The notes under the pieces are model-generated. The model ran no database searches, was not told the DNA's origin, and was given only the letters and a program-made list of their open reading frames with translations. A DNA stretch of 32,000 bases from Erysipelotrichaceae bacterium MTC7 (GTDB taxonomy: Bacteria > Bacillota_I > Bacilli_A > Erysipelotrichales > Erysipelotrichaceae). The stretch lies in assembly GCA_001695645.1 (NCBI GenBank), contig LVZN01000019.1, positions 2,667 to 34,666 on the forward strand, given 5' to 3'. Both the position numbers and the translations under genes were made by a program. Position 1 is the first letter of the stretch; the number at the start of each line of letters is the position of its first letter. Shown here one piece after another: positions 239-32,000 of the stretch.

Positions 239-245
239 CAAGACA

Positions 246-2728: not shown

Positions 2729-2739
2729 TCTCGCTTTTT
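2715..2739 (+). terminator. Rho-independent terminator
   Basis: Stem agcgagat / atctcgct (8 bp), 5-nt loop containing the stop codon, then TTTTT. Confidence 0.7.
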
Positions 2740-2751
2740 ACGTGCAAAGAC

Positions 2752-2779
2752 TTGCAAGATGTTAAAAATGGAGTATAAT
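2752..2779 (+). promoter_or_regulatory. Sigma-A type promoter of the arsR-ATPase operon
   Basis: TTGCAA (2752-2757), 16-nt spacer, TATAAT (2774-2779). Confidence 0.55.
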
Positions 2780-2782
2780 GAA

Positions 2783-2804
2783 CATATGAACAAGTGTTCA
2801 TATG
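2783..2804. promoter_or_regulatory. ArsR/SmtB-type operator (perfect 10-2-10 inverted repeat)
   Basis: CATATGAACA-AG-TGTTCATATG lies directly after the -10 box and before the arsR-family start. It resembles the TGAACA-type czr/cad operators. Confidence 0.65.
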
Positions 2805-2813
2805 AGGTGAAAT

Positions 2814-3152
2814 ATGGAAACATGTAAAGTTGAAAGTTGTAAGCATACCCAGTTCAAACGTGTGGATGAACTTGATGTTGTAGAAGCTGAAGAGCTGTCG
2901 ATTTTTTTTAAGATGTATGCAGATGCAACAAGATTAAAAATCTTACATGTTCTCTTTAAAGGGGAAATGTGTGTCCAGTGCATTGCTGATGAACTGGATA
3001 TGAGTCAAAGTGCCATTTCGCACCAGCTTGCCATATTGAAAAGGAATCGAATTATTAAGTCACGTCGTGATAAGAAAAATATGTTCTATTCTTTGGATGA
3101 CAAACATATTGAACTTATTTTTAATGCAGCATATGAACATATAAAGGAGTAG
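2814..3152 (+). CDS. ArsR/SmtB family metal-sensing repressor
   Basis: ADATRLKILHVL...MCVQCIADELDMSQSAISHQLAILKRNRIIKSRRDKKNMFYSL is the winged HTH of the ArsR family. The gene sits directly upstream of a metal ATPase. Confidence 0.9.
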   Translation: METCKVESCKHTQFKRVDELDVVEAEELSIFFKMYADATRLKILHVLFKGEMCVQCIADELDMSQSAISHQLAILKRNRIIKSRRDKKNMFYSLDDKHIELIFNAAYEHIKE

Positions 3153-3156
3153 GAAT

Positions 3157-5403: not shown

Positions 5404-5409
5404 AAGAAA

Positions 5410-5450
5410 AGCCAGTCGAAGTGATCGATATCACATTCGATTGGCTTTTT
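5410..5450. terminator. Bidirectional terminator between the ATPase and the convergent LCP gene
   Basis: Stem of about 16 bp, agccagtcgaagtgat / atcacattcgattggct, flanked by an A-run and a T-run. Confidence 0.7.
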
Positions 5451-5455
5451 ATTGT

Positions 5456-7288: not shown

Positions 7289-7382
7289 AAGTTACCTCTT
7301 TTTCACTTCATTATAGTATAGGAAAGCAACGAGTGTAAAGTGAAAATGAAGTGAAAAGTTATGTTTCATATACAAGAACAAT

Positions 7383-7406
7383 AAAAAAAGATGTTCGGAA
7401 ACACCT
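7383..7406 (-). terminator. Terminator of the second LCP gene
   Basis: A-run then gatgtt-cgga-aacacc hairpin (one A.C mismatch). On the - strand this reads GGTGTTTCCGAACATC followed by TTTTTTT. Confidence 0.55.
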
Positions 7407-7425
7407 TTTTGTTTGTATATTCGAA

Positions 7426-17530: not shown

Positions 17531-18130
17531 ATGGCGATACTCAAACAATCAAACAAAGGAAATAAAAAAACAAAACATCGACCAAACTGGTTGTTGCGAT
17601 TCACGATTGTGGTTGTGGCAATTCCATGTTTGATTCTTGCTTTTGTATTACTTACATCGTTGGGTTCTTCCAACAAACCGGTCGTTGGTGATCGTTTTGA
17701 AGGTCAACTCAACCCAAAAATTGAAAGTGGTAAAACAAAGGAAATCAAGGCTTTACTTGCATATCCTGAAGCAGAAAGCGTATCTGTCAATCTTAAAAGT
17801 GCAACGTTACGCATCACCATCAACTGTCTTGATGATGTGAATAACGATCAAATTGCAGCTATTGTGAATGACGCATATGCAAAAGTAGATTCTGTATTAC
17901 CCATTGGTACGTATTTCACCAACAAAGATAAAACAAAAATGTATGATTTAGAAATACAGGTTTATAATTATCTACCTGATGAAAGTCGACCAACAAACAT
18001 TCATTACGTACTTGTAAAGAATGCTAGTGCAGAAGCACAACATGTAGATAATGTCTCAGCTGCTAAAGATCAAGAAGTCGCAGACAAACTACAATCATAT
18101 CCTAAACAAGGAGAAACCGTCGGGCAATAA
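17531..18130 (+). CDS. Membrane-anchored hypothetical protein
   Basis: 199 aa with a basic N-terminus, one TM helix (LLRFTIVVVAIPCLILAFVLL) and RBS AAGGAGAG. No recognisable domain. Confidence 0.6.
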   Translation: MAILKQSNKGNKKTKHRPNWLLRFTIVVVAIPCLILAFVLLTSLGSSNKPVVGDRFEGQLNPKIESGKTKEIKALLAYPEAESVSVNLKSATLRITINCLDDVNNDQIAAIVNDAYAKVDSVLPIGTYFTNKDKTKMYDLEIQVYNYLPDESRPTNIHYVLVKNASAEAQHVDNVSAAKDQEVADKLQSYPKQGETVGQ

Positions 18131-18144
18131 TGTCCGACTTTTTT
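18119..18144 (+). terminator. Weak terminator/attenuator hairpin before the methyltransferase gene
   Basis: gtcgg(g)c-aataat-g(t)ccgac followed by TTTTTT. The stop codon lies in the loop. Confidence 0.45.
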
Positions 18145-18155
18145 GGAGGAATGCA

Positions 18156-19472
18156 ATGAAAGAAAAAATACGTTTAACTGGTACGGTTATAGATTATACA
18201 TACGATGGAATGGGTGTTGTTAAAGTGGATAACTTCACGTATTTTGTACGTGGGGTTTTGTTGCATGAAGAAGTTGAATTTCTTGTTTTAAAACGCAATA
18301 AAAACTTAGGATATGGAAAAGTGGAACGAATTATAAAAGAAAGCGAACATCGTATTATACCTTCATGTCCATACTTTCCAAAATGTGGAGGATGTCATAT
18401 CATGCATATGGATGAACAAGCCCAATTGGACTTCAAACATCGCATTGTAAAACAAAATATCAAGAACATTGGAAAACTAGACATTGAAGTGCGCAAACCA
18501 CTTGCTAGTAATGCCTATCATTATCGCAACAAAGCGCAGTTTCCTGTACAAGCACAACCATTTGCAATGGGGTTTTATCGACAACGTTCCAATGATTTGG
18601 TCGATATTCAGACCTGTCTTGTACAAAGTGAATTAATCGATACCATTTACAAAGAATTACGTGCAATCAAAGATACAAGTTTTGTCGAAGATGTGCGTCA
18701 CGTGTTAATTAAACATGCATTTGTCAGTGGGGAAGTCATGGTTGCCTTTATCATGCGGAAGGATCATAAAGATGAAATTGCTGCATTTATGAAACCTTTA
18801 CTAGATAGATATCCGATCGTTTCTTTACTACAAAACATTAACACAAGAAATGATAATGTGATTTTAGGTGATCATATTGATGTGATTGATGGAAAACCAT
18901 CCATTGTTGAAGAACTTGATGGATTACAATTCCAAATTTCATTACATTCATTTTTTCAAATCAATCCAAAGCAAACCATTCATCTATATGATGAAGCAAT
19001 CAAAGCAGCGAATATCACCAAAGACGATACCGTGATTGATTTATATTGTGGTGTTGGAAGTATCACCTTGTTTCTTGCTAGACAAGCAAAGCATGTAACT
19101 GGAGTAGAAATCGTAGCTCCTGCAATTGAAAACGCCAAAATCAACCAACAGTTGAATCAAATAGACAATGTTTCATTTATTTGTAGTGATGCAGGTACAT
19201 ATGCAAGTAAAGTTGTCGCAAGTAAAAACTATCCGGACGTCATATTTGTGGATCCACCACGAAAAGGATTGGATGCATTAACCATTGAAAGTACGGTAAA
19301 AATGCAACCAAGAACAATCGCATATATTTCATGTAATCCAGCAACACTAGCAAGAGATATTGCGATATACAAAGAACATGGATATACGTGTGAATATGTA
19401 CAACCTGTAGATATGTTTCCAAACACGTATCACGTTGAGACGGTAGTATTGATGTCAAGGGTTGATAAGTAA
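18156..19472 (+). CDS. 23S rRNA (uracil-5-)-methyltransferase, RumA/RlmD/RlmCD family
   Basis: TRAM domain; Fe-S cysteines CPYFPKCGGCHIMH; SAM motif DLYCGVGSI; DPPRKG; nucleophile ISCNPATLARD. I prefer the ATG at 18156 (GGAGG RBS) over the ORF-track start at 18051, which overlaps the previous gene. Confidence 0.85.
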   Translation: MKEKIRLTGTVIDYTYDGMGVVKVDNFTYFVRGVLLHEEVEFLVLKRNKNLGYGKVERIIKESEHRIIPSCPYFPKCGGCHIMHMDEQAQLDFKHRIVKQNIKNIGKLDIEVRKPLASNAYHYRNKAQFPVQAQPFAMGFYRQRSNDLVDIQTCLVQSELIDTIYKELRAIKDTSFVEDVRHVLIKHAFVSGEVMVAFIMRKDHKDEIAAFMKPLLDRYPIVSLLQNINTRNDNVILGDHIDVIDGKPSIVEELDGLQFQISLHSFFQINPKQTIHLYDEAIKAANITKDDTVIDLYCGVGSITLFLARQAKHVTGVEIVAPAIENAKINQQLNQIDNVSFICSDAGTYASKVVASKNYPDVIFVDPPRKGLDALTIESTVKMQPRTIAYISCNPATLARDIAIYKEHGYTCEYVQPVDMFPNTYHVETVVLMSRVDK

Positions 19473-19791: not shown

Positions 19792-21822
19792 ATGAAAGGG
19801 GATGTGAATTTGAGATTTATTGGATCGAAATCTAATTTAATTAACGAGATAGATAAGATAGTAAAAAAGAATATTCATGGAGATGAAGAAACATTTTTAG
19901 ATTTGTTTGCAGGGACAAATATCGTCGGAGAATACTTCAAAAAGGATTTTACGATTTATTCTAATGATATATTATATTTTAGCTACGTCAACGCAAAAGC
20001 TGTAATTGAAAATAACGGGAATTTGACATTTTCAAAGTTAAAGTTAGCGGGTATTGAATCTCCGCTAGACTATTTGCAGGAAAATGCCGAAAGATATATT
20101 CAGAATAGTGTCGTAGGTTACTATGAGCAAAACTATACGCCTACAGGGGGGGCGATGTATCTCACCGTACAAAATGGGAAAAGAATTGACTATATTAGGG
20201 ATAAGATTGATGTATGGAAAACTGAGAAGTTGATAACAGATAATGAATTCTACTATTTACTTTCATCGTTAATAGAATCTATCCCTTATGTTAGTAATAC
20301 TACGGGAACATATGGTGCGTATCTAAAACATTGGGATAAGAGAGCACTTAAATCATTAGAGCTTATACCTTTAGTTGTTCAGGATAACAAAAAAGAGAAC
20401 AAAGCATATAACGAAGATGCTAATATACTAATTAATAATAAAAAAGTGGATATTGCGTATATTGATACACCATATAATAATAGGCAATATGCTTCTAATT
20501 ATCATTTGCTAGAAAATATTGCTAAAAATGATAAACCAGAATTAAATGGCAAGACCAGAATTTTTGAATGGAGCAATTTAAAAAGTGATTACTCTATTAA
20601 GAGAAAAGCATTGACAGCAATGAAGGACTTATTAAATAATCTACAAGCTAAGCACATAATTTTGAGTTATAACAATGAAGGTATCATACCAGAGGATGAA
20701 TTAATATCATTGATGAAAGAAAATTCTTTTGATGGGACAGTTCAGATAGAAAGAATTCCGTATCGGAAATACAAGTCAAAGAAACCTTCTAAAAGCGATG
20801 AATTATATGAAATTCTTATTTATGTTCAGAAGGAGGCAATTACTAATAAAAAGAGTAAAAGTATGTACATTGCTAAATCAAAACCAAGTAAATGGATTGG
20901 AGAAAAGCAGCGTTTAATCAAAAGTCCTCTAAACTATATAGGTGGAAAGTTCAAGTTGCTAAAGCAGATTCTTCCGTTGTTTCCCTCTGAGATAGATACG
21001 TTTGTTGATCTATTTAGTGGGGGGGCTAATGTTGGAATCAATGTGGAAGCTAAACATTATATTTTTAATGATATGAACAATCGGATTAATGAGATGTTTC
21101 GCTATTTTGCAAAACAAGAAGTAGAATATCTAATAGGTAGTATACGAAAGAGAATTGCTGAATATGACTTAACTAAGGAAAATGAGGAAGGGTATTTAGA
21201 ATTTAGAAATCAATATAATAAAAATCCAAATCCATTAGATTTATATGTGTTGGTATCGTTTAGTTATAATTATCAGTTTCGTTTTAATAACTCCATGGAA
21301 TTTAACAATCCATTTGGACGCAACAGGAGTAGGTTCAGTGATAATATGGAAAAAAACTTAAGATTATTTGTCAACAAACTACACGAAATAGATGCCGAAT
21401 TTACAGATGAGTTTTTCAATGAATTAGATTTATCTTGGTTGGGTGAAAAGGATTTTGTTTATTTAGATCCTCCGTATTTAATAACTACTGGTAACTATAA
21501 TGATGGAAACAGAGGGTTTGTAAACTGGGGTATAGAACAAGAACGTGATATGTATAAATTGATGGACAAACTATCAAGGCAAGGAGTGAGGTATGCCCTT
21601 AGTAATGTAATAGAACATAAAGGTAAAAAAAACGAGCTACTTAAGGAATATATAAATACATCAAACGTAAGAGTCCATTATTTAGAATATAACTATAATA
21701 ACTCGTCTCATAACTCCAAGGGAACAGGGAGTACCGAAGTATTAATTACGAACTATGAGACAAGCAATTTCGATTTACTAACAGATAGAATTGGTTCTAT
21801 TCGAAAAATTGCAAGTTCATAA
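19792..21822 (+). CDS. Fused two-domain N6-adenine DNA methyltransferase (M.FokI-like, Type IIS)
   Basis: Two Dam/D12-class modules. The N-module has RFIGSK, FLDLFAGTNIVG and DTPY (nt 20464-20475). The C-module has LNYIGGKFKLL, FVDLFSGGANVG and DPPY (nt 21466-21477). The real start may be the TTG at 19810, which has a better RBS (AAAGGGGA). Confidence 0.85.
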   Translation: MKGDVNLRFIGSKSNLINEIDKIVKKNIHGDEETFLDLFAGTNIVGEYFKKDFTIYSNDILYFSYVNAKAVIENNGNLTFSKLKLAGIESPLDYLQENAERYIQNSVVGYYEQNYTPTGGAMYLTVQNGKRIDYIRDKIDVWKTEKLITDNEFYYLLSSLIESIPYVSNTTGTYGAYLKHWDKRALKSLELIPLVVQDNKKENKAYNEDANILINNKKVDIAYIDTPYNNRQYASNYHLLENIAKNDKPELNGKTRIFEWSNLKSDYSIKRKALTAMKDLLNNLQAKHIILSYNNEGIIPEDELISLMKENSFDGTVQIERIPYRKYKSKKPSKSDELYEILIYVQKEAITNKKSKSMYIAKSKPSKWIGEKQRLIKSPLNYIGGKFKLLKQILPLFPSEIDTFVDLFSGGANVGINVEAKHYIFNDMNNRINEMFRYFAKQEVEYLIGSIRKRIAEYDLTKENEEGYLEFRNQYNKNPNPLDLYVLVSFSYNYQFRFNNSMEFNNPFGRNRSRFSDNMEKNLRLFVNKLHEIDAEFTDEFFNELDLSWLGEKDFVYLDPPYLITTGNYNDGNRGFVNWGIEQERDMYKLMDKLSRQGVRYALSNVIEHKGKKNELLKEYINTSNVRVHYLEYNYNNSSHNSKGTGSTEVLITNYETSNFDLLTDRIGSIRKIASS

Positions 21823-21833
21823 TAAAAGAGTTT

Positions 21834-21874
21834 AAGTGCACAAAACTTGAGATAATCCCGAAGTCTGTGCACTT
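21834..21874. terminator. Bidirectional terminator between the convergent M and R genes
   Basis: aagtgcaca / tgtgcactt 9-bp stem, extended by actt/aagt, flanked by T-rich sequence. Confidence 0.65.
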
Positions 21875-21884
21875 AATTTATTTG

Positions 21885-23630
21885 TCAATTATTAACCCAA
21901 AGAATCTCTTTATTATCAATATAGTCTGAGATTCTATTAGCATCGAGTTCGCCTCTTAGTACAGCATTAGCGCCAAGTAGCAGCTGCTCAACGTTTAATG
22001 CCGCCCCTTTTGTATTAGTTCGATTATACGTGCTTTCTATCTGTTCTTGAAATCTTCCTATAAATTTACTAGAGACCCACATAAAATAATACTTTTCTTT
22101 TTTAATACTTGACGGGAAGTTATTCCACCATTCTATAGGATTACGTGTTGTATCTCTATATTGATTATCTTCAATATATCTTACCATTTCATCTTCTTGA
22201 CTAATTGATTTGCTATATCCAGTACTATATGCCTTCGTGTCAATGATCATTCCAAAGTTAGCATTAAATACAAGGCAATCTGGTTTTCTCCCGCCGCCTA
22301 GCAAAACAGATTTTAAACCATAAACCTTTTTGAAAATTTCTGCAGTAATAATTTCGAAATCTCTATTTCTATTTCCATCAAAAGCAATTTCGAGCAGTTC
22401 AATATATTTTGCGGGTAAATCTGTTTTATTCATAAATTCAGCTTTACGTTGCTCTGATGCTTTATCTTTTAATTCCTTTGTGAGATTTAGTTTAGGTATT
22501 TCAAAATCAACTAGTAAGTCCTTCAACTCAATATTAGGGCCGTTCTTCTCAATACGTATTCCAAAAGTGTTTAACCCTTGAATATCATTTTCAATAATTT
22601 TAGGATCATCATTGAAGCCCAGTTGCTGAAGTTTTTCCATTAAAACTTTAAATGACTTTGTTTCCTGCAAGAATTTCAATATATAGGAGCGTCTAGAGCG
22701 AATGTAATTTCTGTTTTCGCCCTCAACGGCTAAAAATTCCCAGGTTAGATATTTGGTAATACGCATATTTTTGGAGCTGCCATGTGCTTTTCGTAGTGCG
22801 TGGCTTCCCCGTCCTGTAATAGAAAACTCTTGGAAACCTGCTTTTTTTCCGTTAATCGTGTTAACAACAGTGCTATTTTTTTGCACAAAGCCAACTTTTT
22901 CTAACCAGGTCGATATCATACGTGCATATTTATCACTAGTACCTTCAATATCTGACTTGATTTTTTTCTGTTCTTCATTTGTTCCACTGTTAAACCAGTC
23001 GAACATTAAGCTTTCATCATAGGATGTAAAACCTTTTTCACCAGAAAATCCTAATTGATTACCTATATAGAATTTACTAACTGGTCTAGTAGTTGATTCT
23101 AATATATTTAAAACTTGTGTTGCAGGAGGATAGCTTAAAAGAGAATTTCGGAGAATATTAATTTCATGTTCAGAATCATCAATAGATCGCGAAAATTCCC
23201 TACCCAAGGGCGTAATTGAGCACATATCCGTTTCGCGATTGTGTTTTACAAAATTTAGACTGAGAGCCCATCTTAAGTACCCATCAGATGTCCAATTATC
23301 AGTCCAAAACTTGCCTTTAGTCTTAGAGGATTGTGGTAATATTGTGATTTGTATTAACGCATCTGCAACAGCTTCAGATCTCGATTTAGGGGATCTTCCA
23401 TGTTTGTTTTTTGAAGTACCTACGAGATCTAGATATGAGAATTCTTCAATTTTTCGAGTGAACTTATTTAATAAGTCAGATTTTATATCATCAAAATAGA
23501 TATAGCGTGAAATCAAATTGCTTTTGAGGTTTTCATAATGTACAGAAGTATTGTCAAAAATCTGAACCACTAGTTTTAATTTTTTGAAGTCAGATGGATT
23601 CTGAACCCAACCATATGTGCGTGAAATCAT
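21885..23630 (-). CDS. FokI-like Type IIS restriction endonuclease
   Basis: 581 aa; FokI is about 580 aa. Blocks I recall from FokI are present. RTYGWVQNP matches RTFGWVQNP, TSDGYLRWA matches SSDGFLRWA, GTSDKYARMI matches GSSDKYARMI. YIELLEIA is shared, and the cleavage-domain motif GGGRKPDCLVF...MIIDTKAY gives D451, D464, K466 against FokI D450, D467, K469. RBS AAGGAGAT. Confidence 0.9.
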   Translation of the reverse strand: MISRTYGWVQNPSDFKKLKLVVQIFDNTSVHYENLKSNLISRYIYFDDIKSDLLNKFTRKIEEFSYLDLVGTSKNKHGRSPKSRSEAVADALIQITILPQSSKTKGKFWTDNWTSDGYLRWALSLNFVKHNRETDMCSITPLGREFSRSIDDSEHEINILRNSLLSYPPATQVLNILESTTRPVSKFYIGNQLGFSGEKGFTSYDESLMFDWFNSGTNEEQKKIKSDIEGTSDKYARMISTWLEKVGFVQKNSTVVNTINGKKAGFQEFSITGRGSHALRKAHGSSKNMRITKYLTWEFLAVEGENRNYIRSRRSYILKFLQETKSFKVLMEKLQQLGFNDDPKIIENDIQGLNTFGIRIEKNGPNIELKDLLVDFEIPKLNLTKELKDKASEQRKAEFMNKTDLPAKYIELLEIAFDGNRNRDFEIITAEIFKKVYGLKSVLLGGGRKPDCLVFNANFGMIIDTKAYSTGYSKSISQEDEMVRYIEDNQYRDTTRNPIEWWNNFPSSIKKEKYYFMWVSSKFIGRFQEQIESTYNRTNTKGAALNVEQLLLGANAVLRGELDANRISDYIDNKEILWVNN

Positions 23631-23654: not shown

Positions 23655-23870
23655 TTATAAACTATTATCTTTTATCGTCTCCATAATATCTTCAAGCTTG
23701 CAATCAAGTGCTTCACATATTTTAAGCAGAATATCCGTAGTGATATTCTCGCCTTTACCAAGCTTTGCTATAGATGCAGAGCTTATACCGGTGGCATTCT
23801 TCAAATCTTGTTTATTCATATTTTTATCAATTAGCATTTTCCAGAGTTTGTTGTAGCTAATTCTGAGCAT
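23655..23870 (-). CDS. Small XRE/Cro-type HTH protein (candidate R-M controller or regulator of the neighbouring system)
   Basis: 71 aa; KNMNKQDLKNATGISSASIAKLGKGENITTDILLKICEALDC is a canonical HTH_XRE. RBS AAAGGAGAT. Lies 24 nt upstream of the nuclease start. Confidence 0.85.
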   Translation of the reverse strand: MLRISYNKLWKMLIDKNMNKQDLKNATGISSASIAKLGKGENITTDILLKICEALDCKLEDIMETIKDNSL

Positions 23871-23899: not shown

Positions 23900-25729
23900 C
23901 TAATTGCTATATACATCATGTAAAAAACCATAACGACTTTCTTTGTACTTACTTATATATTTGCCATGTGTAAATTCTATTACCTTAGCATCTCTAGCCT
24001 CATAATCTAAATCTGGAAGATCCTTTGTGTTTTCTACAACTATCATTTGTCCTTCGGATTGATTGTCAATAAAGTATTGGAATAGGGCGGTTCTCATGCT
24101 TGTAGGTGCATTATCATCGACGCCTTGATCAAGACCAAGCAAAGGTGTATCCACCACAAAAATTCCTGGTCTATGTACAGCATCTTCGTGTAAATACTTT
24201 CTAAAAGTTAACCCTACAATTGTATTGATAAAAGCCCAGTAACCCTTACCATGACTATCTTCTTTTGCATAGCCATTTATTTCTAAATCAAATGTACCCA
24301 TGTTGAAATGAGCCGTATTCAAATTTTCATATTTGCAGTCAACTAGAATTGAATATGCTATTTCATCTATACGTGTATTAAAATCGACAGGGAAGTGTTC
24401 TTTTGGTTTAAATTTTGGGTTATCCGAATCATCACTTTCTTGCTTTTGTAATTCAACAATCCACTCTTGTGAAACGCTTTGCAATACAGTTGATTCTTGT
24501 TGTAATTGTATATAAGAGCGATATTGTTGTATTCCTTCTCTTAGTTTATTAGATTGCGGAGTAAGTTCAGTTTCGATTAATTTATCTATCCCCGATCTTT
24601 GTCTTTCAAGATGATCGATTTTTTCACGAACTTCATTTAATGATGAAACGACATCTTCTTCACTCTCAGACAAGCCCTGCAATTGAGTAATGATGCGATT
24701 CAGTTCAGCTCTTGATGCTTTAATGTATGATTTTCTCTCTGCTGGTTGCATATTACCATCACAAAAAGGACATTTTTTATTTTTATCAACAGAGTGTAGA
24801 TGTACCTCTCCATCTACAATAAATGATAATCTTTTTATATCAGCTGTATATTGGCTTCGTAGCGATTGAAAGTGAGAATAAGTAACTTGGTTTTCTGCTT
24901 CTTTTTCCTTTAAATCTAGTAAAGTACCTAGTAAATCCTTACTCTCTTCTGTAGCAGCCGCAATAGCAGCTTCAGTTTCAGAAAGATTGTCAATTAGCTT
25001 TTGCATTTCATCTTCCACATCTAAATCGCTATAAGTAGACAATGCTTTTTGTAGCTCTTCTCTTTTTTTAGACATCTGAGAAATTCTACCGTTTACAAAT
25101 TGGCGAACAGCATCTTTTTTAGCTTTGCTGATTTCATCCTTGTCATGTTCCTCCATATCTGGGTATTCATTTCCAGTGAGAAGATATAGAAGGGATGCAA
25201 AAAAATAAGGATTCTGAGTAGGCGATGAAGGTAAAAGCACCGATTTCGGATTTTCAATTTCTTGTTCTTTTAACCAAAACAATCCCATAAGAGTTTTCCA
25301 TGAGAGGCGTTGTCTAGCAAAATCTTGATTTTTTATTATCATTGGCAGTTTTTTAATACCAATCAATTTAAGCCAAAGTTCATTTAAAACAGGATTTTTA
25401 TTCCCGTTACTCTTATATTTAACGTCATAGTCACCACCATCAATTGAGTTAATTTGGCTGACCACGTTTACTATATTCTTTCCAACTATCCGAGAGAGAT
25501 GAATAGTGCCTTCTGGGGTATTAATATCTAGGCTGACGCTATCATATCCTGTTTGTTCTTTTTCAAAAGGCTTTTCAATTACACCCATAGCAAACTGGAT
25601 GCATTTTAATATGCAGGTCTTTCCGGAATCGGAAACTCCACAAATGATATTTAATCCTTTATCAAAAGTTACAATAGCAGGGGACTTCCCTGTGCCGGTT
25701 GCTGTGACTTTAGAAATATAAAACGCCAT
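23900..25729 (-). CDS. Rad50/SMC-like ABC ATPase with coiled-coil insert and CxxC hook (LmuB / ABC-3C ATPase-like)
   Basis: Walker A GVSDSGKT (nt 25616-25639). Charged heptad-like region about res 195-430 with CPFC at res 320-323 (nt 24761-24772). C-terminal half-head SHGKGYWAF...GIFVVDTPLLGLD...QMIVVEN. RBS AAGGAAGGAG. Confidence 0.8.
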   Translation of the reverse strand: MAFYISKVTATGTGKSPAIVTFDKGLNIICGVSDSGKTCILKCIQFAMGVIEKPFEKEQTGYDSVSLDINTPEGTIHLSRIVGKNIVNVVSQINSIDGGDYDVKYKSNGNKNPVLNELWLKLIGIKKLPMIIKNQDFARQRLSWKTLMGLFWLKEQEIENPKSVLLPSSPTQNPYFFASLLYLLTGNEYPDMEEHDKDEISKAKKDAVRQFVNGRISQMSKKREELQKALSTYSDLDVEDEMQKLIDNLSETEAAIAAATEESKDLLGTLLDLKEKEAENQVTYSHFQSLRSQYTADIKRLSFIVDGEVHLHSVDKNKKCPFCDGNMQPAERKSYIKASRAELNRIITQLQGLSESEEDVVSSLNEVREKIDHLERQRSGIDKLIETELTPQSNKLREGIQQYRSYIQLQQESTVLQSVSQEWIVELQKQESDDSDNPKFKPKEHFPVDFNTRIDEIAYSILVDCKYENLNTAHFNMGTFDLEINGYAKEDSHGKGYWAFINTIVGLTFRKYLHEDAVHRPGIFVVDTPLLGLDQGVDDNAPTSMRTALFQYFIDNQSEGQMIVVENTKDLPDLDYEARDAKVIEFTHGKYISKYKESRYGFLHDVYSN

Positions 25730-25734
25730 ACAGG

Positions 25735-26217
25735 TTACTCCTTCCTTAACGATTTAGACGCTTCTCTACTAATCAAATTAAGAAGTTCTTTTTCGTTTTT
25801 CGAATCCATATAAATAATAGCTTTGTGTGCATACAATCTATATTCATTGGCATAATCAGAAGCTAGGGAACTGCATAAGGCAAGTCCACGTTCTGTAATA
25901 GAATATATAAAGCCATCATTTGAATAAGAAACCCTAACCAAGTTTTCTAAAACAAGCTGTTTAATAGCTTGTTGTGATAATGATCTTCTCGCAGAAAATT
26001 CAGAAAAACTAAATTCATTATCACCATGAAGATTGCTATTTGATAATCCAAATTCTTTTGAGTAATTTGAAATAAAATCTGCTGTTACCAGCTTATCAAT
26101 TGTAAACTTATTATTATTAGACAATGATAAGACAAGTAGTAATCTCATTGATATTTCAAATTCAGTATTGAAAACTTTATCATTCATCTTCATCCACCCA
26201 CCGAACGCAACCATCAT
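25735..26217 (-). CDS. Small winged-helix-like middle component (ABC-3C MC / LmuC-like position)
   Basis: About 150-160 aa between the other two genes; QAIKQLVLENLVRVSYSNDGFIYSITERGLAL resembles a wHTH recognition helix plus wing. The likely true start is the ATG at 26187 (MNDKVF...), which overlaps the upstream stop within ATGAATGA. Confidence 0.6.
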   Translation of the reverse strand: MMVAFGGWMKMNDKVFNTEFEISMRLLLVLSLSNNNKFTIDKLVTADFISNYSKEFGLSNSNLHGDNEFSFSEFSARRSLSQQAIKQLVLENLVRVSYSNDGFIYSITERGLALCSSLASDYANEYRLYAHKAIIYMDSKNEKELLNLISREASKSLRKE

Positions 26218-27181
26218 TTACCAATAGATGACAGGTTCCTTTCTTTTCTTTTGGGCCTACTAGATTTTGGATATTATCAACAACAGATGTGGTAGAGCAA
26301 TCGACTACCTTTTTCATAACGGCTAACAGCCTTTTGTATCCATCATCGTAATCATCCCATAAAGTATCTTTAATGTAATCATGTGTTTCAGACTTCCACT
26401 TCTTAGAATGTTCTTCGCCTTTATCTATAGATTCTCGAATAAAGCGGTCAATACGCAATGCACTATAATAATTGATTCGTTGATCAGAGAAGTTTCTTTT
26501 GAATTTTGTAGGTAACGAGTCTAAATCAGCTTTTGTCAAATTACCAGATTTTATAGCTTCTGCATAAGCTGCAAGAAGCTCACTAACATATTTCTCTTCT
26601 TCAGGAGCAATGTCTTGTGGAGGCTCGATCTCCTTAGGAATAGATATTTCAACATTACCTATATGTAATTTTCCATCAGATTCGTCATAATAAATAGTTT
26701 GAGAAGGTAAAGATGCTAATTTAGAAGGGGAAGTTGCATTATTAGAAACATTGATGCTAGACGATTCTCTGCCTTCATAAATGTCATCTAGAATTTGAAG
26801 AAACAAATCAGCACAAGCATATCCTAAAACTTCATCGGGATTGAAGCCTGGAATCATTTTTTTGATTTCATCCTCAATAGCCATCTGATTATGATCGTTT
26901 AAATTACTTATGTAATTTGCAAATTTATCTGTATCTTTACGACTAATAACTACATGTACCTTTTTGGGGTTCAAAGGATTACTACCCTTTATCAATCGAT
27001 CTAATGAGTCTGGTTTGAGAACACCAAAAGGGTTATATCTATCATTCTCAGACAATTTTATTTCTTCCACCGTTTGAGGGGCTCTCATGATATTGTCAAA
27101 AAGCGACAGAAAAAACTCATATGGTTTATATGATGTACCACTGTGTTTATAAAGTATATTCGCAAATTCACTAAAGAGCAT
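26180..27181 (-). CDS. Putative effector/sensor subunit: unassigned N-terminal domain plus ABC-3C-type C-terminal coupling domain (LmuA position)
   Basis: 333 aa, RBS GGAGGTG. The C-terminal ~140 aa (RINYYSALRIDRFIRE...DDGYKRLLAVMKKV...KKGTCHLLVNDGCVRWV) resemble, from memory, the conserved C-terminal domains of ABC-three-component effector proteins. No catalytic motif is recognisable in the N-terminal ~135 aa. Confidence 0.55.
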   Translation of the reverse strand: MLFSEFANILYKHSGTSYKPYEFFLSLFDNIMRAPQTVEEIKLSENDRYNPFGVLKPDSLDRLIKGSNPLNPKKVHVVISRKDTDKFANYISNLNDHNQMAIEDEIKKMIPGFNPDEVLGYACADLFLQILDDIYEGRESSSINVSNNATSPSKLASLPSQTIYYDESDGKLHIGNVEISIPKEIEPPQDIAPEEEKYVSELLAAYAEAIKSGNLTKADLDSLPTKFKRNFSDQRINYYSALRIDRFIRESIDKGEEHSKKWKSETHDYIKDTLWDDYDDGYKRLLAVMKKVVDCSTTSVVDNIQNLVGPKEKKGTCHLLVNDGCVRWVDEDE

Positions 27182-27200: not shown

Positions 27201-27240
27201 TATTTCCGAATCTTTCCGAACCTCTCCGAGTCCTTCCTTA
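27201..27240. repeat. Four degenerate tandem 10-nt repeats in the leader of the three-gene operon
   Basis: tatttccgaa / tctttccgaa / cctctccgag / tccttcctta. On the mRNA strand this is a ladder of GGAA/GGAG purine blocks with 10-nt phasing, ending in the RBS. Confidence 0.6.
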
Positions 27241-27258
27241 ATGGAAGGTCTTTTTTTT
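27232..27258 (+). terminator. Hairpin plus T8 (terminator-like on the + strand)
   Basis: ccttcc-ttaat-ggaagg followed by tc and TTTTTTTT. There is no + strand gene upstream, so its role is unclear. Confidence 0.4.
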
Positions 27259-27429
27259 ATACAATTTTATTAGTGATTGAGTGATATTGAAGAAGAAATT
27301 GCAAGCAAAAAAGACTGCTTAAATTATATCACGAAAAATCACACATTACCAGAAGAAAAATTCACAAAAGCAAATATTTTATCATTTATTGTTGAATTTA
27401 TCTTCAAAAATGGAAAGGAGGTAGTGCAG

Positions 27430-27573
27430 ATGGCCAAACGTAATACGAAGCAAACATCAAAAAGAGTTGCGTCAAAAGCAAGCAAAATTCTTAACGATGG
27501 ACGCTACAGTAAGAAATCCAAGTCAGTGGCTGGCAGTGCTTTAAGTCAAACTAGACCAAGCAAGAAAAAGTAA
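27430..27573 (+). CDS. Small lysine/serine-rich basic protein (47 aa), function unknown
   Basis: ATG at 27430 preceded by GGAAAGGAGG: MAKRNTKQTSKRVASKASKILNDGRYSKKSKSVAGSALSQTRPSKKK. The ORF track extends it to a TTG at 27277, which lacks an obvious RBS. Confidence 0.5.
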   Translation: MAKRNTKQTSKRVASKASKILNDGRYSKKSKSVAGSALSQTRPSKKK

Positions 27574-27693
27574 TTTTCAGAACAGATGATAGGTAGCGAC
27601 AGATTTGAATAATCAGCCTACTTATCCTCCCTAAGGGAGAAATCTATCCAGAGCGGTTATCGCTCAACAAAATCAATCTCAAAGTCCTAGTGC

Positions 27694-27791
27694 GCATACG
27701 GACGGCGGGATGCATAAGAGTTCAGAACACAGTAATAAAGACTGTGTTTGGAATGAAGATGCACCCACCGTTATTTCGTGTGCCCTTTTTT
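27694..27791 (+). other. Long three-tier GC-rich hairpin ending in a U-tract (structured RNA or elaborate terminator)
   Basis: Outer stem gcatacg / cgtgtgc. Middle stem acggcgggatgca / tgcacccaccgt (one bulge, one mismatch). Apical stem aacacagt-aataaag-actgtgtt. Then ccTTTTTT. Confidence 0.4.
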
Positions 27792-27801
27792 AGGACAAGC
27801 G

Positions 27802-27835
27802 GAGTCTGTGGTCATCTTCACCGCAGGCTCTTTTT
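27802..27835 (+). terminator. Rho-independent terminator just upstream of the sigma-like gene
   Basis: gagtctgtggt-catcttc-accgcaggctc (11 bp including 2 G.U pairs) followed by TTTTT. Confidence 0.6.
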
Positions 27836-27875
27836 GTATTCCGCCGCCCAATGACTAGGCGGGAAGGAATACTTT

Positions 27876-28418
27876 ATGAAGATTCGAGTTTTATATGAAG
27901 ACAACATTAAAAACGGTCACAAGAACTACACCACAATTGAAATTCCAGATGGAGATTACAGCGTCATGCTGGATATCGACTATGAGCAACGTCTTGCAGA
28001 AGCAAAGCCTGAAAAGAAGGCAGAGGTGAAACGCTGCGAGACTCTACAAGAAATGTTCGACCTCATGAACAACAAGGAATATAACCATTGGCGCCGCTAC
28101 CATAGGCACCTTGGTAATACCAAGACACCTTATCGAAAAGATGATGAAGTTGAAATTGATGTCATGGATACTTTCGCTGATAACTCCCAGGAGATAGAAC
28201 GCAATCACCAAGATGAGTACGAATCTGTCTGCCAATGGATACGCACCGTTCTTGGCAAAAAGCAGGACTGGGCAGATATGTTCATTGCAGTACGGATTGA
28301 CGGTATGTCGATTCGAGAATATGCCAGTTCCATCGGTGTTAATGAAAACAATATTACTCAGAAATTAAAGCGAGCAACCAAGAAATTAGAACAAGAATAT
28401 AAAAAACGTCAGATTTGA
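27876..28418 (+). CDS. Sigma-70 region-4-like HTH regulator of a mobile element
   Basis: 180 aa. The C-terminus MSIREYASSIGVNENNITQKLKRATKKLEQEY resembles sigma region 4. The architecture recalls the small sigma-like proteins of clostridial integrative elements. Confidence 0.55.
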   Translation: MKIRVLYEDNIKNGHKNYTTIEIPDGDYSVMLDIDYEQRLAEAKPEKKAEVKRCETLQEMFDLMNNKEYNHWRRYHRHLGNTKTPYRKDDEVEIDVMDTFADNSQEIERNHQDEYESVCQWIRTVLGKKQDWADMFIAVRIDGMSIREYASSIGVNENNITQKLKRATKKLEQEYKKRQI

Positions 28419-28482
28419 CCTTCTCCCAAGGCTACTAGGTAGGAGGTCAAGACCTCCAAAAAAACACAAGGAGGTAATTCGA

Positions 28483-29265
28483 ATGGAATTACAAGTTTAC
28501 AAAAATGCAGAGTTTGGCTCTGTACGTACTACAACGATTGCTGGTCAACCTTATTTTGTAGGTAAGGATGTAGCTGATATTCTCGGCTACTCAAATACTC
28601 GCAAAGCTTTGATCGACCATGTTGACAAAGAGGACAAGGATGACGTAACGATTCGTGACGCCATCGGAAGAAATCAAACGATGACTGCTATCAATGAATC
28701 CGGTCTTTATAGCCTCATCCTCTCAAGCAAGATGCCGAATGCTAAAAAGTTTAAGCGATGGGTGACAAACGAAGTCCTCCCTGCTATTCGGAAACATGGA
28801 CTTTATGCAACAGATGATTTAATCGCAAATCCAGACCTTGCCATTGCTGCATTTACTGCATTAAAAGAGGAACGTGAAAAAAACAAGGAACTGATGGCGG
28901 CCGTTGCGATTGGTCAGCAGCAGATTGCCGAGATGAAACCCAAGGCTACTTACTATGATGTGGTTCTTAAATGCAGGGATGCAGTCAATATCTCTGTGAT
29001 TGCCAAAGATTACGGCTGGAGTGCCATGCGCATGAACGAATACCTTCATGAAAAAGGCATTCAGTACAAACAAGGAACTATTTGGCTTCTCTATCAAAAG
29101 TATGCTCCAAATGGATATACCAAAACCAACACTCATATTTACGAAGATAGTAAGGGTATCCAACATACGAAAGTGCACACCAAGTGGACGCAAAAAGGCA
29201 GACTCTTTATCTATGAACAGTTAAAAGCCGACGGTATTTACCCGCAAATTGAGATGGAGGTGTGA
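28483..29265 (+). CDS. Bro-N / KilAC-domain phage antirepressor-like protein
   Basis: N-terminus FGSVRTTTIAGQPYFVGKDVADILGY...ESGLYSLILSSKMPNAKKFKRWVTNEVLPAIRKHG is the Bro-N domain. The C-terminus is KilAC-like (ISVIAKDYGWSAMRMNEYLHEKGIQY). Confidence 0.85.
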   Translation: MELQVYKNAEFGSVRTTTIAGQPYFVGKDVADILGYSNTRKALIDHVDKEDKDDVTIRDAIGRNQTMTAINESGLYSLILSSKMPNAKKFKRWVTNEVLPAIRKHGLYATDDLIANPDLAIAAFTALKEEREKNKELMAAVAIGQQQIAEMKPKATYYDVVLKCRDAVNISVIAKDYGWSAMRMNEYLHEKGIQYKQGTIWLLYQKYAPNGYTKTNTHIYEDSKGIQHTKVHTKWTQKGRLFIYEQLKADGIYPQIEMEV

Positions 29266-29266
29266 T

Positions 29267-29701
29267 ATGGGAATCAATATGAAAAATGCAGAAGGGTATT
29301 ATGACCCAACTCCCCATAAAGCACTTAGCAATATATCCCGTGAGGAAAAGGCAGCAGCAAAAGCTGCCTTTAAGCCCCTTGTCTATATTTGCTCTCCATT
29401 TAGTGGCGATATTGATAACAACAATAAGCGCACACGAGTATTTTGCCGTTTTGCTTTAGATAAGGGCAATATTCCGCTTGCTCCTCACCTTCTATTTCCA
29501 CAGTTTATGGATGACAGCAATGAGAAAGAACGTGAGCTCGCTATTTTTATGGATATTATCCTGATGGGCAAATGCCAAGAGGTCTGGGTTCTAGGTGATG
29601 TTATCTCAAGAGGCATGAGTATTGAAATTGAAAAAGCAAAGAAACGCAGACAGCCGGTCAGATACTTTAATAAAGATTTCAAGGAGGTAGAGTCTCTATG
29701 A
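29267..29701 (+). CDS. DUF4406 / nucleoside 2-deoxyribosyltransferase-like protein
   Basis: LVYICSPFSGD...APHLLFPQFMDD...VWVLGDVISRGMSIEIEKA resembles this Rossmann-like family. Preferred start is the ATG at 29267 after GGAGGTG. The stop overlaps the next start (ATGA). Confidence 0.5.
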   Translation: MGINMKNAEGYYDPTPHKALSNISREEKAAAKAAFKPLVYICSPFSGDIDNNNKRTRVFCRFALDKGNIPLAPHLLFPQFMDDSNEKERELAIFMDIILMGKCQEVWVLGDVISRGMSIEIEKAKKRRQPVRYFNKDFKEVESL

Positions 29702-32000
29702 AGATAGCATATGGCAACAGCCGAATGGATAAGAAATGGAAAAACACAGACATCAGCTGGGAGGACTTTTGCTCCAGGGTTAAGACCACACAGCGTACTA
29801 CTGAAACCGTAGAAGAATATCGGAAAATGAGAAAAGGTGGTCAAGATTCCATTAAAGATGTCGGTGGTTTTGTTGGGGGTCACTTAAAAGATGGCAGACG
29901 TAAAAAAGGAAATGTTCTATCTCGTTCTATGCTCACCCTTGATATGGATTATGGCACAAGTACTATCTGGGAAGAAATCTCTACCTTCTTCCCTTATCAG
30001 TGCTGTATTTATTCCACGCATAAGCATACCCCGGAAAATCCAAGGCTTAGGCTGATCATTCCTCTCTTACGTGATGTGGGAGAGGAAGAGTATGCTGCTG
30101 TTAGTCGCATGGTCGCAAAAGAAATAGGCATCGACCTTTTTGATGATACGACCTATGAACCGGAACGATTAATGTATTGGCCGTCTACCTCAAGAAACGG
30201 CATTTTTGTGTATGAAGAGAAAGATGGCTCCATTCTTGATCCTGATGAATTTCTAAATAAATACGATGATTGGCGAGACACCAGTACTTGGCCCGTATCC
30301 TCTAGGCAGTCAGAAGTACTTGATCGCTCATTAAAGGAACAAGCCGATCCACTTTCAAAAGAGGGAGTTATCGGTACTTTTTGTCGTAGCTACTCAGTAA
30401 GCACTGCAATCGATACGTTCTTAAAGGATATATACGAGCCTTCAGCAATAACTGGTCGCTATGATTATATCCCGGCTGATTCTAGTGCCGGGGTTATCCT
30501 CTATGATGATAAGTTTGCCTATTCCCACCACGCAACAGATCCTGCAAGTGGGCGGCTTCTTAATGCTTTTGACCTTGTTCGCATTCACAAGTTTGGCAAT
30601 TTAGATGATCGAGCGACAGAAAGCACACCTCCAAGCAAACTACCATCCTTTATCAATATGTGCGAATTTGCTATCCAAGACGATAAAGTAAAAGCACAGT
30701 TTACGAAAGAGCGGATGGAGCAGGCAACGATTGATTTTACGGAGGATAATTGGCAGATAGCACTGGAACTAGATAAACAAGGAAAGATTAAAGACACCTT
30801 AGATAATATCGTTCTCATCATCCGCAATGATTCAGAACTAGAATCCATTGCTTTTAATAAGCACCGTGATGGAATCGATGCAAGAGACGGACTGCCATGG
30901 GAACAGATGAAGGGCGGCTGGAATGATTCAGACAATGCGGCCCTTAAAGTTTATCTATCTAATAAATACGGCATCTACTCCCCAACCAAAACAAAGGACG
31001 CAATACTAGCAGTCGCAGCAGAGCGATCTTATCATCCCATCAAGGAATACCTTGATCATTTATCAGAGTGGGATGGAATTGACCGCGTTGAAACCTTGTT
31101 GATTGATTATTTTAATGCAACAGATAATTCCTATACCAGAGCCGTTACTAGAAAAATGATGGTGGCAGCAGTCGCTAGAATTGTTGATCCTGGTACTAAA
31201 TTCGACAGCGTTTTAATTCTAAATGGACCACAAGGAATCGGTAAGTCTACCTTCTTTGCAAAGCTTGCAGGCGATTGGTTTTCTGATAGTTTGACACTTA
31301 CTGATATGAAAGATAAGTCAGGACCAGAAAAACTCCAAGGTTACTGGATCTTAGAATTAGGCGAACTAGCTGGAATGCGAAAGACTGATGTGGAGGTTGT
31401 GAAATCCTTTATTTCAAGATCGGATGATAAATACCGTGCCAGTTATGGGGTGAATGTTGAAAGCCACCCCCGTCAATGTATCATTGTCGGCTCTACCAAT
31501 GCAGAAAGTGGATTTTTGCGAGACATCACGGGTAACCGAAGATTCTGGCCAGTGCGTATTAGTGGTGACGGTAAAAGAAAAGCATGGCAGATGTCCGTAT
31601 ACGATGTAGAGCAGATTTGGGCAGAAACTTTGGTGCTGTATGGCCGAGGTGAAAAGCTCTATTTAGAGGGCAGTGATGTAGAGTTGGCAACGAATGAGCA
31701 GGCAGATGCCATGGAGAGTGATGAGCGAGAAGGGCTTGTTCGCACTTACCTCGATACACTTTTACCCGATGACTGGAATGACCTGTCCTTATACGAGCGA
31801 AGAAACTACCTAAACGGTAGTGAATTTGGTGGGGAATCCCGTGTCGGTACGGTTGAACGTACGCTTGTTTGCAATATGGAAATTTGGTGCGAATGCTTTG
31901 GAAGGGATGCCTCCGCCATGAAGCCTGCGGACTCCTATGCCATTGCAGGCATTATGAAAAAGATTAATGGGTGGAACAAGTACCAAGGGAACAAGAACGG
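29698..32000 (+). CDS. VirE-family primase-helicase (N-terminal primase-like region plus P-loop NTPase), 3' partial
   Basis: Open frame from ATG 29698 to the window end, so it is absent from the ORF track: MKIAYGNSRMDKKWKNTDISWEDF... Walker A LILNGPQGIGKSTFFAKL, Walker B YWILELGELAGM, then RASYGVNVESHPRQCIIVGSTN, typical of virulence-associated protein E replicases of phages and islands. Confidence 0.85.
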   Translation, partial: MKIAYGNSRMDKKWKNTDISWEDFCSRVKTTQRTTETVEEYRKMRKGGQDSIKDVGGFVGGHLKDGRRKKGNVLSRSMLTLDMDYGTSTIWEEISTFFPYQCCIYSTHKHTPENPRLRLIIPLLRDVGEEEYAAVSRMVAKEIGIDLFDDTTYEPERLMYWPSTSRNGIFVYEEKDGSILDPDEFLNKYDDWRDTSTWPVSSRQSEVLDRSLKEQADPLSKEGVIGTFCRSYSVSTAIDTFLKDIYEPSAITGRYDYIPADSSAGVILYDDKFAYSHHATDPASGRLLNAFDLVRIHKFGNLDDRATESTPPSKLPSFINMCEFAIQDDKVKAQFTKERMEQATIDFTEDNWQIALELDKQGKIKDTLDNIVLIIRNDSELESIAFNKHRDGIDARDGLPWEQMKGGWNDSDNAALKVYLSNKYGIYSPTKTKDAILAVAAERSYHPIKEYLDHLSEWDGIDRVETLLIDYFNATDNSYTRAVTRKMMVAAVARIVDPGTKFDSVLILNGPQGIGKSTFFAKLAGDWFSDSLTLTDMKDKSGPEKLQGYWILELGELAGMRKTDVEVVKSFISRSDDKYRASYGVNVESHPRQCIIVGSTNAESGFLRDITGNRRFWPVRISGDGKRKAWQMSVYDVEQIWAETLVLYGRGEKLYLEGSDVELATNEQADAMESDEREGLVRTYLDTLLPDDWNDLSLYERRNYLNGSEFGGESRVGTVERTLVCNMEIWCECFGRDASAMKPADSYAIAGIMKKINGWNKYQGNKN

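Follow-up and report, generated by a model that had tools for sequence, protein, structure and literature searches.

The lmuA-lmuC-lmuB genes

The window analysed here is a 32,000-nucleotide stretch of DNA from Erysipelotrichaceae bacterium MTC7 (contig LVZN01000019.1); two of its proteins match OCN04735.1 and OCN04747.1 of this strain exactly. Its minus strand carries three tightly packed open reading frames (ORFs) at 26180-27181 (333 aa), 25735-26217 (160 aa) and 23900-25729 (609 aa), which were matched end to end, on protein and model alike, by PADLOC profiles for Lamassu proteins. They correspond to lmuA (26180..27181, minus strand; PDLC03857, 411 bits, residues 1-333 against model positions 1-327 of 327), encoding the protein in the effector position, lmuC (25735..26187, minus strand; PDLC03875, 195 bits), encoding a middle component 2 (MC2) of ABC-three-component (ABC-3C) systems, and lmuB (23900..25729, minus strand; PDLC03867, 850 bits, residues 1-607 against model positions 2-604 of 605), encoding a short-type SMC/Rad50-like ABC ATPase. 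Over the trio, Pfam and PADLOC profile searches gave E-values from 7e-40 to 2e-256, and near-identical proteins are named 'ABC-three component system protein' and 'ABC-three component system middle component 2' by NCBI. An SMC-like ATPase, a middle component of an MC family, a C-terminal domain (CTD) of the coupling type on LmuA, the operon order and a mobile-element context were all found. As regards family and sensor part, the trio is almost certainly a short (type II) Lamassu or ABC-3C system of the MC2-CTD6 subtype. A recognised toxic effector at the LmuA N-terminus (Cap4, Mrr, Sir2, protease, lipase, HNH, SMEK or FMO) was searched for as well and was not found. The best explanation of the system as a whole, to which we assign a probability of roughly 0.55, is a prophage-borne short Lamassu whose output is a non-enzymatic N-terminal domain of LmuA that is activated by clustering.

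The junctions between the three genes are compact. The 3' end of lmuA reads ...GAT GAA TGA, and the octamer ATGAATGA (26180..26187, minus strand) contains both this stop codon and an in-frame ATG of lmuC (MNDKVF...). Since the MC2 and PADLOC LmuC matches begin at residues 13-15 of the longest middle ORF, which reaches 26217 (160 aa), and since the middle genes of related loci and cluster members have mostly been called at 149-153 aa and in some cases at 160 aa, the true middle gene is probably 25735-26187 (150 aa), translationally coupled to lmuA. It ends in AAGGAAGGAG-TAA, in which AAGGAAGGAG (25738..25747, minus strand) forms a Shine-Dalgarno-like run 8 nt upstream of the lmuB start codon; the lmuB ATG follows 5 nt after the lmuC stop, at 25729. 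The order lmuA-lmuC-lmuB was maintained in the related loci examined, including L003-L010, L028 and L030. In a promoter and terminator scan, shuffled controls had more promoter-like sites than the real sequence, and no boundary of the operon could be derived from it.

LmuB was matched by Pfam AAA_23 (E 2e-11), and the motifs of a split ABC head were read from its translation. At the N-terminal side lies the Walker A motif GVSDSGKT (residues 31-38, including K37; 25616..25639, minus strand), of which G31, S33, D34, G36, K37 and T38 are invariant in five homologues. The Walker B motif GIFVVDTP (residues 522-529, with FVVDT at 524-528 and D527-T528; 24143..24166, minus strand) is likewise invariant in the homologue alignment, and further motifs are SHGKGYWAF (492-500, with SHGKG at 492-496), GIFVVDTPLLGLD (522-534) and QMIVVEN (561-567). 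NCBIfam models of Rad50 and of ASRP (archaeal SMC-related) proteins match at residues ~198-431, in agreement with a central coiled coil of ~230 residues. The mid-point of this coiled coil is a CPFC zinc-hook motif (residues 320-323; 24761..24772, minus strand), which is invariant in the homologue alignment and gave a weak match to Rad50_zn_hook. CxxC hooks are known in Lamassu LmuB (PMC12663957), and short Lamassu has been defined by LmuB length together with a Walker B of the form hhhhD[QSTE] (Haudiquet et al., 2025, PMC12663957). By its length of 609 aa, a Walker B of hhhhD followed by T and a single CxxC hook, LmuB fits the description 'short Lamassu'. LmuB identity drops to 54% over the set of related loci, and a LmuB profile reached Rad50 and Salmonella LmuB (9hqu) in the PDB at the P-loop only (E ~0.4). 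Sequence searches against the PDB with the three proteins and with the LmuB and N-terminal domain profiles gave no significant match.

LmuC was matched by Pfam PF20288 (MC2, E 2.5e-49). The initial annotation, made from the letters of the sequence, had described this middle protein as looking like a winged helix; the only profile matches in line with that description, to HTH_45 and MC4, are weak (E 0.016 and 2e-4). Its other readings of the trio were borne out: the coordinates, the overlapping octamer and the 5-nt spacer with a ribosome-binding-site-like run were all found in the sequence, the head motifs and the K37 numbering are correct (the CPFC hook being an addition), the helix between the two head halves is covered by the Rad50/ASRP matches, and the proposed ABC-3C/Lamassu assignment agrees with the hidden Markov model (HMM) and PADLOC matches to all three proteins. 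Judged by these matches, the chassis is ordinary and already present in PADLOC, and the subtype is catalogued in defence-finder libraries. The expectation of an uncharacterised subtype was correct in that no experimental work on MC2-CTD6 Lamassu was found in the literature searched, but not in the sense of an uncatalogued one, as PDLC03857 and the NCBI names cover it.

LmuA and its N-terminal domain

Homologues of LmuA form 77 clusters with 40-99% identity across Bacillota. A full-length AlphaFold2 (AF2) model (pLDDT 86) consists of an eight-helix N-terminal domain, a disordered linker (residues 140-154), a beta-hairpin (residues 163-180) and a helical CTD. The latter is a CTD6 coupling domain (residues 195-328; 26198..26599, minus strand; Pfam PF20282, E 6.9e-40), as had been anticipated for the C-terminus of the 333-aa protein, and the conserved beta-hairpin region (residues 161-192) precedes it on the N-terminal side. 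When the full model was compared with the PDB by Foldseek, the best matches were the solved LmuA chains 9nxx, 9hr5 and 9uxi (E ~0.1-1). The sole PHROG match was a family of unknown function that covers residues 102-329. For residues 1-190 nothing was obtained from Pfam or NCBIfam, which, together with the all-alpha fold and the lack of an analogue in the PDB described below, confirms the initial statement that no effector enzyme is recognisable.

The first 135 residues form a separate, unnamed domain of eight helices (hereafter N-domain; 26777..27181, minus strand). Modelled alone with an alignment of 70 sequences it gave a pLDDT of 96.8 and a pTM of 0.89, again with eight helices. Searches of Pfam and NCBIfam returned no match to the N-domain at E<=1, and Foldseek retrieved no fold analogue from the PDB (best E 0.37, TM<0.3) and only three uncharacterised Siphoviridae proteins from BFVD (TM 0.66-0.75). 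Its conserved positions are mostly hydrophobic, with only N50-P51 above 90%. C123 is conserved to 89% and D83 to 76% across the family; these and D125, the best-conserved polar or thiol residues, are substituted in distant members. No polar residue is invariant family-wide and no conserved set of catalytic residues was detected. The domain is acidic (median pI 5.1) and has no hydrophobic segment suggestive of membrane insertion. In sequence and model, the N-domain does not look enzymatic. It evolves faster than the CTD, with 73-80% versus 93% identity in close relatives and a mean pairwise identity within LmuA of 0.46 versus 0.61 for the C-terminal part.

Several known folds were considered for the N-domain. 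Because it is all-alpha, it is not a PD-(D/E)xK, Sir2 or hydrolase fold. The SMEK effector, which is listed for short Lamassu, was rejected as well, as SMEK is a nuclease and gave no NCBIfam match, and the fold of the N-domain is all-alpha. An Xre-like helix-turn-helix (HTH) was suggested by the consensus 'LxxIxxGxRxISKxxAxxIL' and by the Xre antitoxin 6gw6_B as top Foldseek match, but was ruled out by the values of this match (E 0.37, TM 0.19) and by a probability of 0.3% in hhalign against the HTH_26 family.

The N-domain is found on other immune proteins. Two of the LmuA homologues from the first round, a NACHT protein and a 282-aa protein with a different C-terminus, match the first ~130 residues only (47-50% identity). 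A profile of the N-domain, run against 1.84 billion proteins, detected 388 representatives (E<=1e-3). The domain begins within ~35 residues of the N-terminus in nearly all full-domain matches listed. A narrow N-domain alignment retrieved close relatives only from a genome-collection scan, and a profile search of a 5.8-billion-protein set returned five fragments. Fusion partners were determined by Pfam scans of 143 of the 388 representatives. These comprise CTD6 (14 proteins), CTD11 (13), NB-ARC or nSTAND with TPR (~5), NACHT with SNaCT14, Sel1 repeats and, as enzyme-fused copies, HamA (P0154) and TIR with vWA (P0190), two of the 143; many N-domain proteins among the 143 are 136-200 aa long. 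The NACHT-SNaCT14 proteins with an N-terminal N-domain are P0078, L001 and L029. NACHT (L001, L029) and Hachiman (HamA, L032) genes hold the position in related elements that corresponds to that of the Lamassu genes, beside similar genes of mobile genetic elements (MGEs).

The CTD11 proteins belong to another ABC-3C subtype, with MC7 and a DUF2326 ATPase followed by an overlapping HTH_17 gene and a methyltransferase (L039, L040). In L039 the HTH_17 gene overlaps the ATPase gene by 8 nt, a position equivalent to that of the HTH_26 gene behind lmuB described below. Between N-domain and CTD, the LmuA of this subtype has an HNH-like CxxC...DNxIxLCxxC zinc ribbon (L039, 859-2109, and alignment), in which the catalytic His-His position is occupied by Ile/Val-Asn/Gln/Lys. 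Judged by these residues, CTD11-type LmuA proteins also appear to be without an evident enzyme. The ribbon may underlie the label 'HNH' for a Lamassu subtype, yet it looks inactive.

In addition, stand-alone N-domain proteins exist that are complete at 138-140 aa and lie beside Xre-type regulators in FtsK-bearing elements. Their genes (L033, 5175-5985; L036, 3929-4807) adjoin Xre-type HTH genes of 119-125 aa in elements that carry FtsK/SpoIIIE, a layout that recalls a two-gene regulatory or toxin-antitoxin-like pair.

Prophage location and the restriction-modification slot

From position 23900 to its end, the window is 96.5% identical in nucleotide sequence to the first 8.1 kb (1-8098) of Streptococcus phage Javan630 (MK448997.1), a 48-kb S. 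uberis prophage that encodes head, tail and lysis functions as well as serine recombinases and aminoglycoside resistance. In its GenBank record the trio is annotated as 'ATPase involved in DNA repair' and two hypothetical proteins. A prophage early/replication arm with sigma-r4-like, Bro-N/KilAC antirepressor, DUF7768 and primase genes (27277..32000, plus strand) was assigned by nucleotide identity to MK448997.1 and by Pfam. The left side of the window consists of the core genes pcrA, ligA, camS and gatCAB and an rlmCD/rumA-type RNA uracil-5-methyltransferase gene (18051..19472, plus strand; Pfam tRNA_U5-meth_tr), the chromosomal gene that adjoins the element; in L003 and L004 the element likewise adjoins a rumA-type gene. 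The GC content of the cassette is 0.32-0.35 versus 0.41-0.45 in the prophage arm. Clusters of the trio (at least 90% identity) occur in Listeria, Erysipelothrix, Vagococcus, Allofustis, Tissierella and Christensenellaceae. The trio does not form a chromosomal island but is defence cargo that a Javan630-like prophage carries at its end next to rlmCD. The initial annotation had placed it in a defence island beside a restriction-modification (R-M) system; the R-M system is indeed adjacent, but the supposed island is the cargo end of the prophage.

Behind lmuB, a 71-aa Xre-type HTH_26 gene (23655..23870, minus strand; Pfam HTH_26, E 3.5e-20) begins after 29 nt and ends 24 nt before a gene for a FokI-like type IIS restriction endonuclease (21885-23630, minus strand; four FokI Pfam domains, PADLOC REase_II). 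The adjoining gene (19792-21822, plus strand) encodes a two-domain Dam-type methyltransferase with two MethyltransfD12 stretches (PADLOC MTase_II). The two genes are convergent, and the 676-aa methyltransferase consists of two Dam-type domains as in M.FokI. The 90% cluster of the endonuclease includes a Listeria monocytogenes member, and its exact sequence is present in an Izemoplasmatales metagenome-assembled genome (MAG). The R-M cassette (19792..23630) is swappable. Related loci with enough flanking sequence share a layout of divergent prophage early genes (sigma-r4-like, Bro-N/KilAC, DUF7768, primase or PolA), lmuA-lmuC-lmuB, an HTH_26 gene (65-72 aa) and a variable R-M system, which is HNH with Dcm, NgoBV with Dcm or type I in these loci and FokI-like with double Dam in the window; in two of them the rumA-type gene comes next after the R-M genes. 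In every related locus the DNA shared with the window extends as far as 23661-23737 and no further, in most cases to 23661-23685 at the 3' end of the HTH gene, so that the R-M cassette is the exchanged unit.

The HTH_26 protein is 72-89% identical across loci whatever the R-M type, including one locus with a NACHT gene instead of Lamassu. Comparison of these sequences indicates a conserved anchor that plausibly regulates the downstream R-M genes or the block in its entirety; the HTH gene seems to be the fixed point at which different R-M systems are plugged in, and it may encode a controller protein. Its presence behind the NACHT gene argues against the HTH gene as a partner of Lamassu, and on this comparison it is not a Lamassu-specific fourth component. 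The adjacent restriction enzyme was also considered as a stand-in for the missing effector and was ruled out, as the R-M type changes freely between near-identical loci.

Some further features of these elements were observed. Javan630 (L011, MK448997.1) carries three serine recombinases together with ant(6) and ant(9), which confer aminoglycoside/spectinomycin resistance (38663-48058); with Lamassu and resistance genes on one prophage, defence and resistance cargo therefore co-travel at the rumA site. A 2.8-kb contig of a 'Methanolobus sp.' MAG (L012, JAVEPM010000258.1) is 98% DNA-identical to the prophage region; most likely, it entered the MAG through a binning error and does not represent an archaeal Lamassu. 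Lachnoclostridium phytofermentans KNHs2131 has two copies of the Lamassu element (L028, 7419-9259; L030, 3871-5709), in one of which lmuB is broken into several short ORFs; this suggests decay of a costly system. Rows for C. saccharobutylicum and L. phytofermentans in Table S7 of Millman et al. read 'mrr_cat', and that for L. phytofermentans refers to a scaffold other than that of this Lamassu. Upstream of lmuA and on the opposite strand, a terminator-like hairpin (CCTTCC-TTAAT-GGAAGG followed by T8; 27232-27256, plus strand) points toward the divergent prophage genes. The adjoining 98-aa ORF (27277-27573, plus strand), with a lysine- and serine-rich tail, is conserved beside lmuA in several related loci and matches phrog_5079 (unknown function, E 8e-23). 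On the chromosomal side, the first 80 nt of the rlmCD-type gene as listed also belong to a 199-aa ORF without a Pfam match (17531-18130, plus strand). Translation of the methyltransferase probably begins further downstream, because the exact 473-aa product is absent from the protein collection.

Proposed function and comparison with known systems

In solved Lamassu systems an A1B2C1 resting complex, sensing of DNA ends and a CTD-mediated LmuA tetramer have been described, and the CTD-driven tetramerisation activates the N-terminal effector (PMC12663957; 10.1101/2025.06.23.660979). By analogy to Lamassu of Vibrio, Salmonella and Bacillus, a LmuB dimer (heads, coiled coils and CPFC hook) together with LmuC would hold one LmuA via its CTD. 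DNA ends or replication intermediates of phages or plasmids would trigger ATP-dependent release of LmuA, and freed LmuA would oligomerise through CTD6. The output would be the clustering of the 135-residue helical N-domain, acting as a proximity-activated binding module and not as an enzyme, with a host factor, a phage factor or further N-domain copies as possible targets; abortive infection or a block of the invader would be the expected result. Release and oligomerisation of LmuA seem somewhat more likely than not on these analogies. This step is argued by analogy to the family, because CTD6 is weakly like the solved CTDs and the LmuB sequence match is confined to the P-loop. The chances that the N-domain is a non-enzymatic output activated by clustering are about even; this assignment is based on its effector position in two ABC-3C subtypes and in STAND NTPases, both of which are sensor types that signal by oligomerising, and on the lack of a catalytic signature.

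Several points weigh against the reading of LmuA as a clustering-activated output. CTD6 is only weakly similar to the solved CTD7 and CTD12 (Foldseek E ~0.1, TM 0.25-0.47). The N-domain also precedes proteins with an enzyme of their own (HamA, TIR), so that it need not be 'the' effector, and the stand-alone copies of 138-140 aa are hard to reconcile with a module that depends on a scaffold for clustering. Moreover, a clade of short Lamassu has been described that 'seemingly lost the effector domain' (Haudiquet et al., PMC12663957), and if the present system is a member, it may truly lack an output domain.

This last possibility leads to a reading in which the N-domain would be a regulatory, sensor or decoy domain and LmuB-LmuC would protect by occupying DNA ends. 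It might, for example, bind the phage trigger, a phage inhibitor or a factor by which the resident prophage avoids triggering the system when it is itself induced. In close relatives the N-domain diverges ~3x faster than the CTD, as expected for an arms-race surface, all copies studied here are on MGEs, and both the effector-less clade in the literature (PMC12663957) and the occurrence of the domain in front of proteins with their own nuclease or TIR would be accounted for. However, the N-terminus of STAND proteins is normally the output and C-terminal repeats or SNaCT are the sensor (10.1101/2022.07.19.500537), known Lamassu systems require the effector for defence, and two ABC-3C subtypes that differ in CTD, middle component and ATPase both retain the N-domain, whose fold is predicted with high confidence. 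We regard this reading as improbable, and the same low probability is given to the N-domain as a homotypic adaptor of the effector-associated domain (EAD) type. In that case clustered LmuA would recruit an enzyme-fused copy (TIR-vWA- or HamA-like) encoded elsewhere, and this protein would kill. Several of the criteria for EADs (Kaur et al., 2020, PMC7159879) apply to the N-domain, a small terminal all-alpha domain without enzymatic features that is joined to core parts of systems unrelated to one another (CTD6/CTD11 LmuA, NACHT, NB-ARC/nSTAND-TPR). Enzyme-fused (P0190, P0154) as well as stand-alone copies exist. Yet a six-frame profile search of the 32-kb window, the 48-kb Javan630 and ten related loci revealed no second copy, so a cis-encoded partner of LmuA is not supported. 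Enterococcus megaplasmids with a homologue show a single place, L. phytofermentans has its two copies in separate Lamassu operons (one with the broken lmuB) and not as a sensor-effector pair, the enzyme-fused copies number only 2 of the 143 representatives, and neither a Pfam EAD family nor a death-fold structure was among the matches.

More doubtful still is a cryptic enzyme or direct toxin of a new fold. The N-domain occupies the effector slot, no match to a known fold constrains its function, and C123 and D83 are well conserved (89% and 76%); but only N50-P51 exceeds 90%, invariant polar residues are lacking, distant members tolerate other residues at C123 and D125, and a small acidic helical bundle that has no segment resembling a membrane insertion does not fit well. 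The chance that the trio is a housekeeping SbcC/RecN-like repair module of the core genome is practically negligible. This alternative, which the initial annotation had named as one that would speak against its assignment, could draw on the repair annotation of the Javan630 copy and on weak matches to Rad50, RecN and SMC. It is ruled out because the trio clusters are spread over the six groups from Listeria to Christensenellaceae named above; in addition, the location is a horizontally spread prophage with 93-98% DNA identity across unrelated genera, no SbcD/Mre11 partner was found, the partner proteins carry the ABC-3C-specific MC2 and CTD6, R-M genes flank the trio, and core-genome synteny was not seen.

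A tentative and rather unlikely reading is that the N-domain represents an unnamed signalling adaptor or effector fold, which would act like a bacterial counterpart of death folds and nucleate a higher-order assembly once clustered. Prophages would then plug one output onto SMC-type sensors (two ABC-3C subtypes), STAND sensors, HamA and TIR proteins; Lamassu would gain a non-enzymatic route of killing or blocking, and SMC- and NLR-based immunity would be linked by one module. The Lamassu mechanisms solved so far all end in a Cap4 nuclease activated on tetramerisation, and the authors of those studies ask if other effector types share the tetramerisation switch. Because a non-enzymatic folded domain sits in the effector slot, the MC2-CTD6 subtype, which is widespread in Bacillota including prophages of Listeria, Erysipelothrix and Streptococcus, is a clean case for what clustering alone achieves. 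Given the NLR-like STAND versions, identification of the N-domain target would account for the output of several defence families together and would lead to a name and a model for this domain, both of which are lacking from Pfam and NCBIfam. If the N-domain is dispensable, the system is a test case for an effector-less Lamassu.

The closest systems with known structure are the type II or short Lamassu of V. cholerae (DdmABC, with Vc-Cap4) and S. enterica (PDB 9nxx, 9ny5, 9uxl, 9hr5, 9hqu). The MTC7 system shares with them the gene order lmuA-lmuC-lmuB, a LmuB of ~600 aa with Walker A and a hhhhD[QSTE] Walker B, a LmuA composed of an N-terminal output domain and a helical CTD, and carriage on mobile elements or islands. 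It differs in that no sequence likeness to the solved chains extends past the P-loop, in having CTD6 and MC2 where the solved systems have CTD7/CTD12 and MC3, and in a predicted non-enzymatic helical domain in place of the Cap4 nuclease; in contrast to Vc-LmuB, which has no hook, MTC7 LmuB retains the CPFC zinc hook. A further resemblance is to 'Clade O', a short Lamassu clade of Haudiquet et al. in which LmuB and LmuC are intact and LmuA has no recognised effector domain. 'Clade O', likened here by description only, may be the published description of the MC2-CTD6 clade; unlike in that description, the N-terminus of MTC7 LmuA is present, conserved, confidently folded and common to other defence proteins.

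Outside the short Lamassu, the ABC-3C systems with CTD11, MC7 and DUF2326 (L039, L040) have the same LmuA N-domain, three coupled genes and a small HTH gene plus methyltransferase after them, but they differ in the CTD, middle-component and ATPase families and in the extra CxxC...CxxC zinc ribbon. The short NACHT-SNaCT proteins (bNACHT, 10.1101/2022.07.19.500537) P0078, L001 and L029 carry the same N-domain at their N-terminus, and in L001 and L029 a small ORF follows, for which Pfam shows an HTH in L001 only; bNACHT is a single-protein STAND sensor, unlike the SMC-like three-gene system. With EADs and bacterial Death-like domains (Kaur et al., 2020, PMC7159879) the N-domain shares its small size, mostly alpha-helical and apparently non-enzymatic nature, terminal position and occurrence across unrelated chassis; two of the 143 representatives are fused to enzymes. 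It is distinguished from them by the absence of a paired copy in the neighbourhood and of Pfam EAD and Foldseek death-fold matches, and with ~135 residues and eight helices it is larger than the six-helix death fold. What appears to be new in the MTC7 system is a putative output domain without a name in Pfam or NCBIfam and without a structural match in the PDB, which recurs on NLR-like, Hachiman and TIR proteins.

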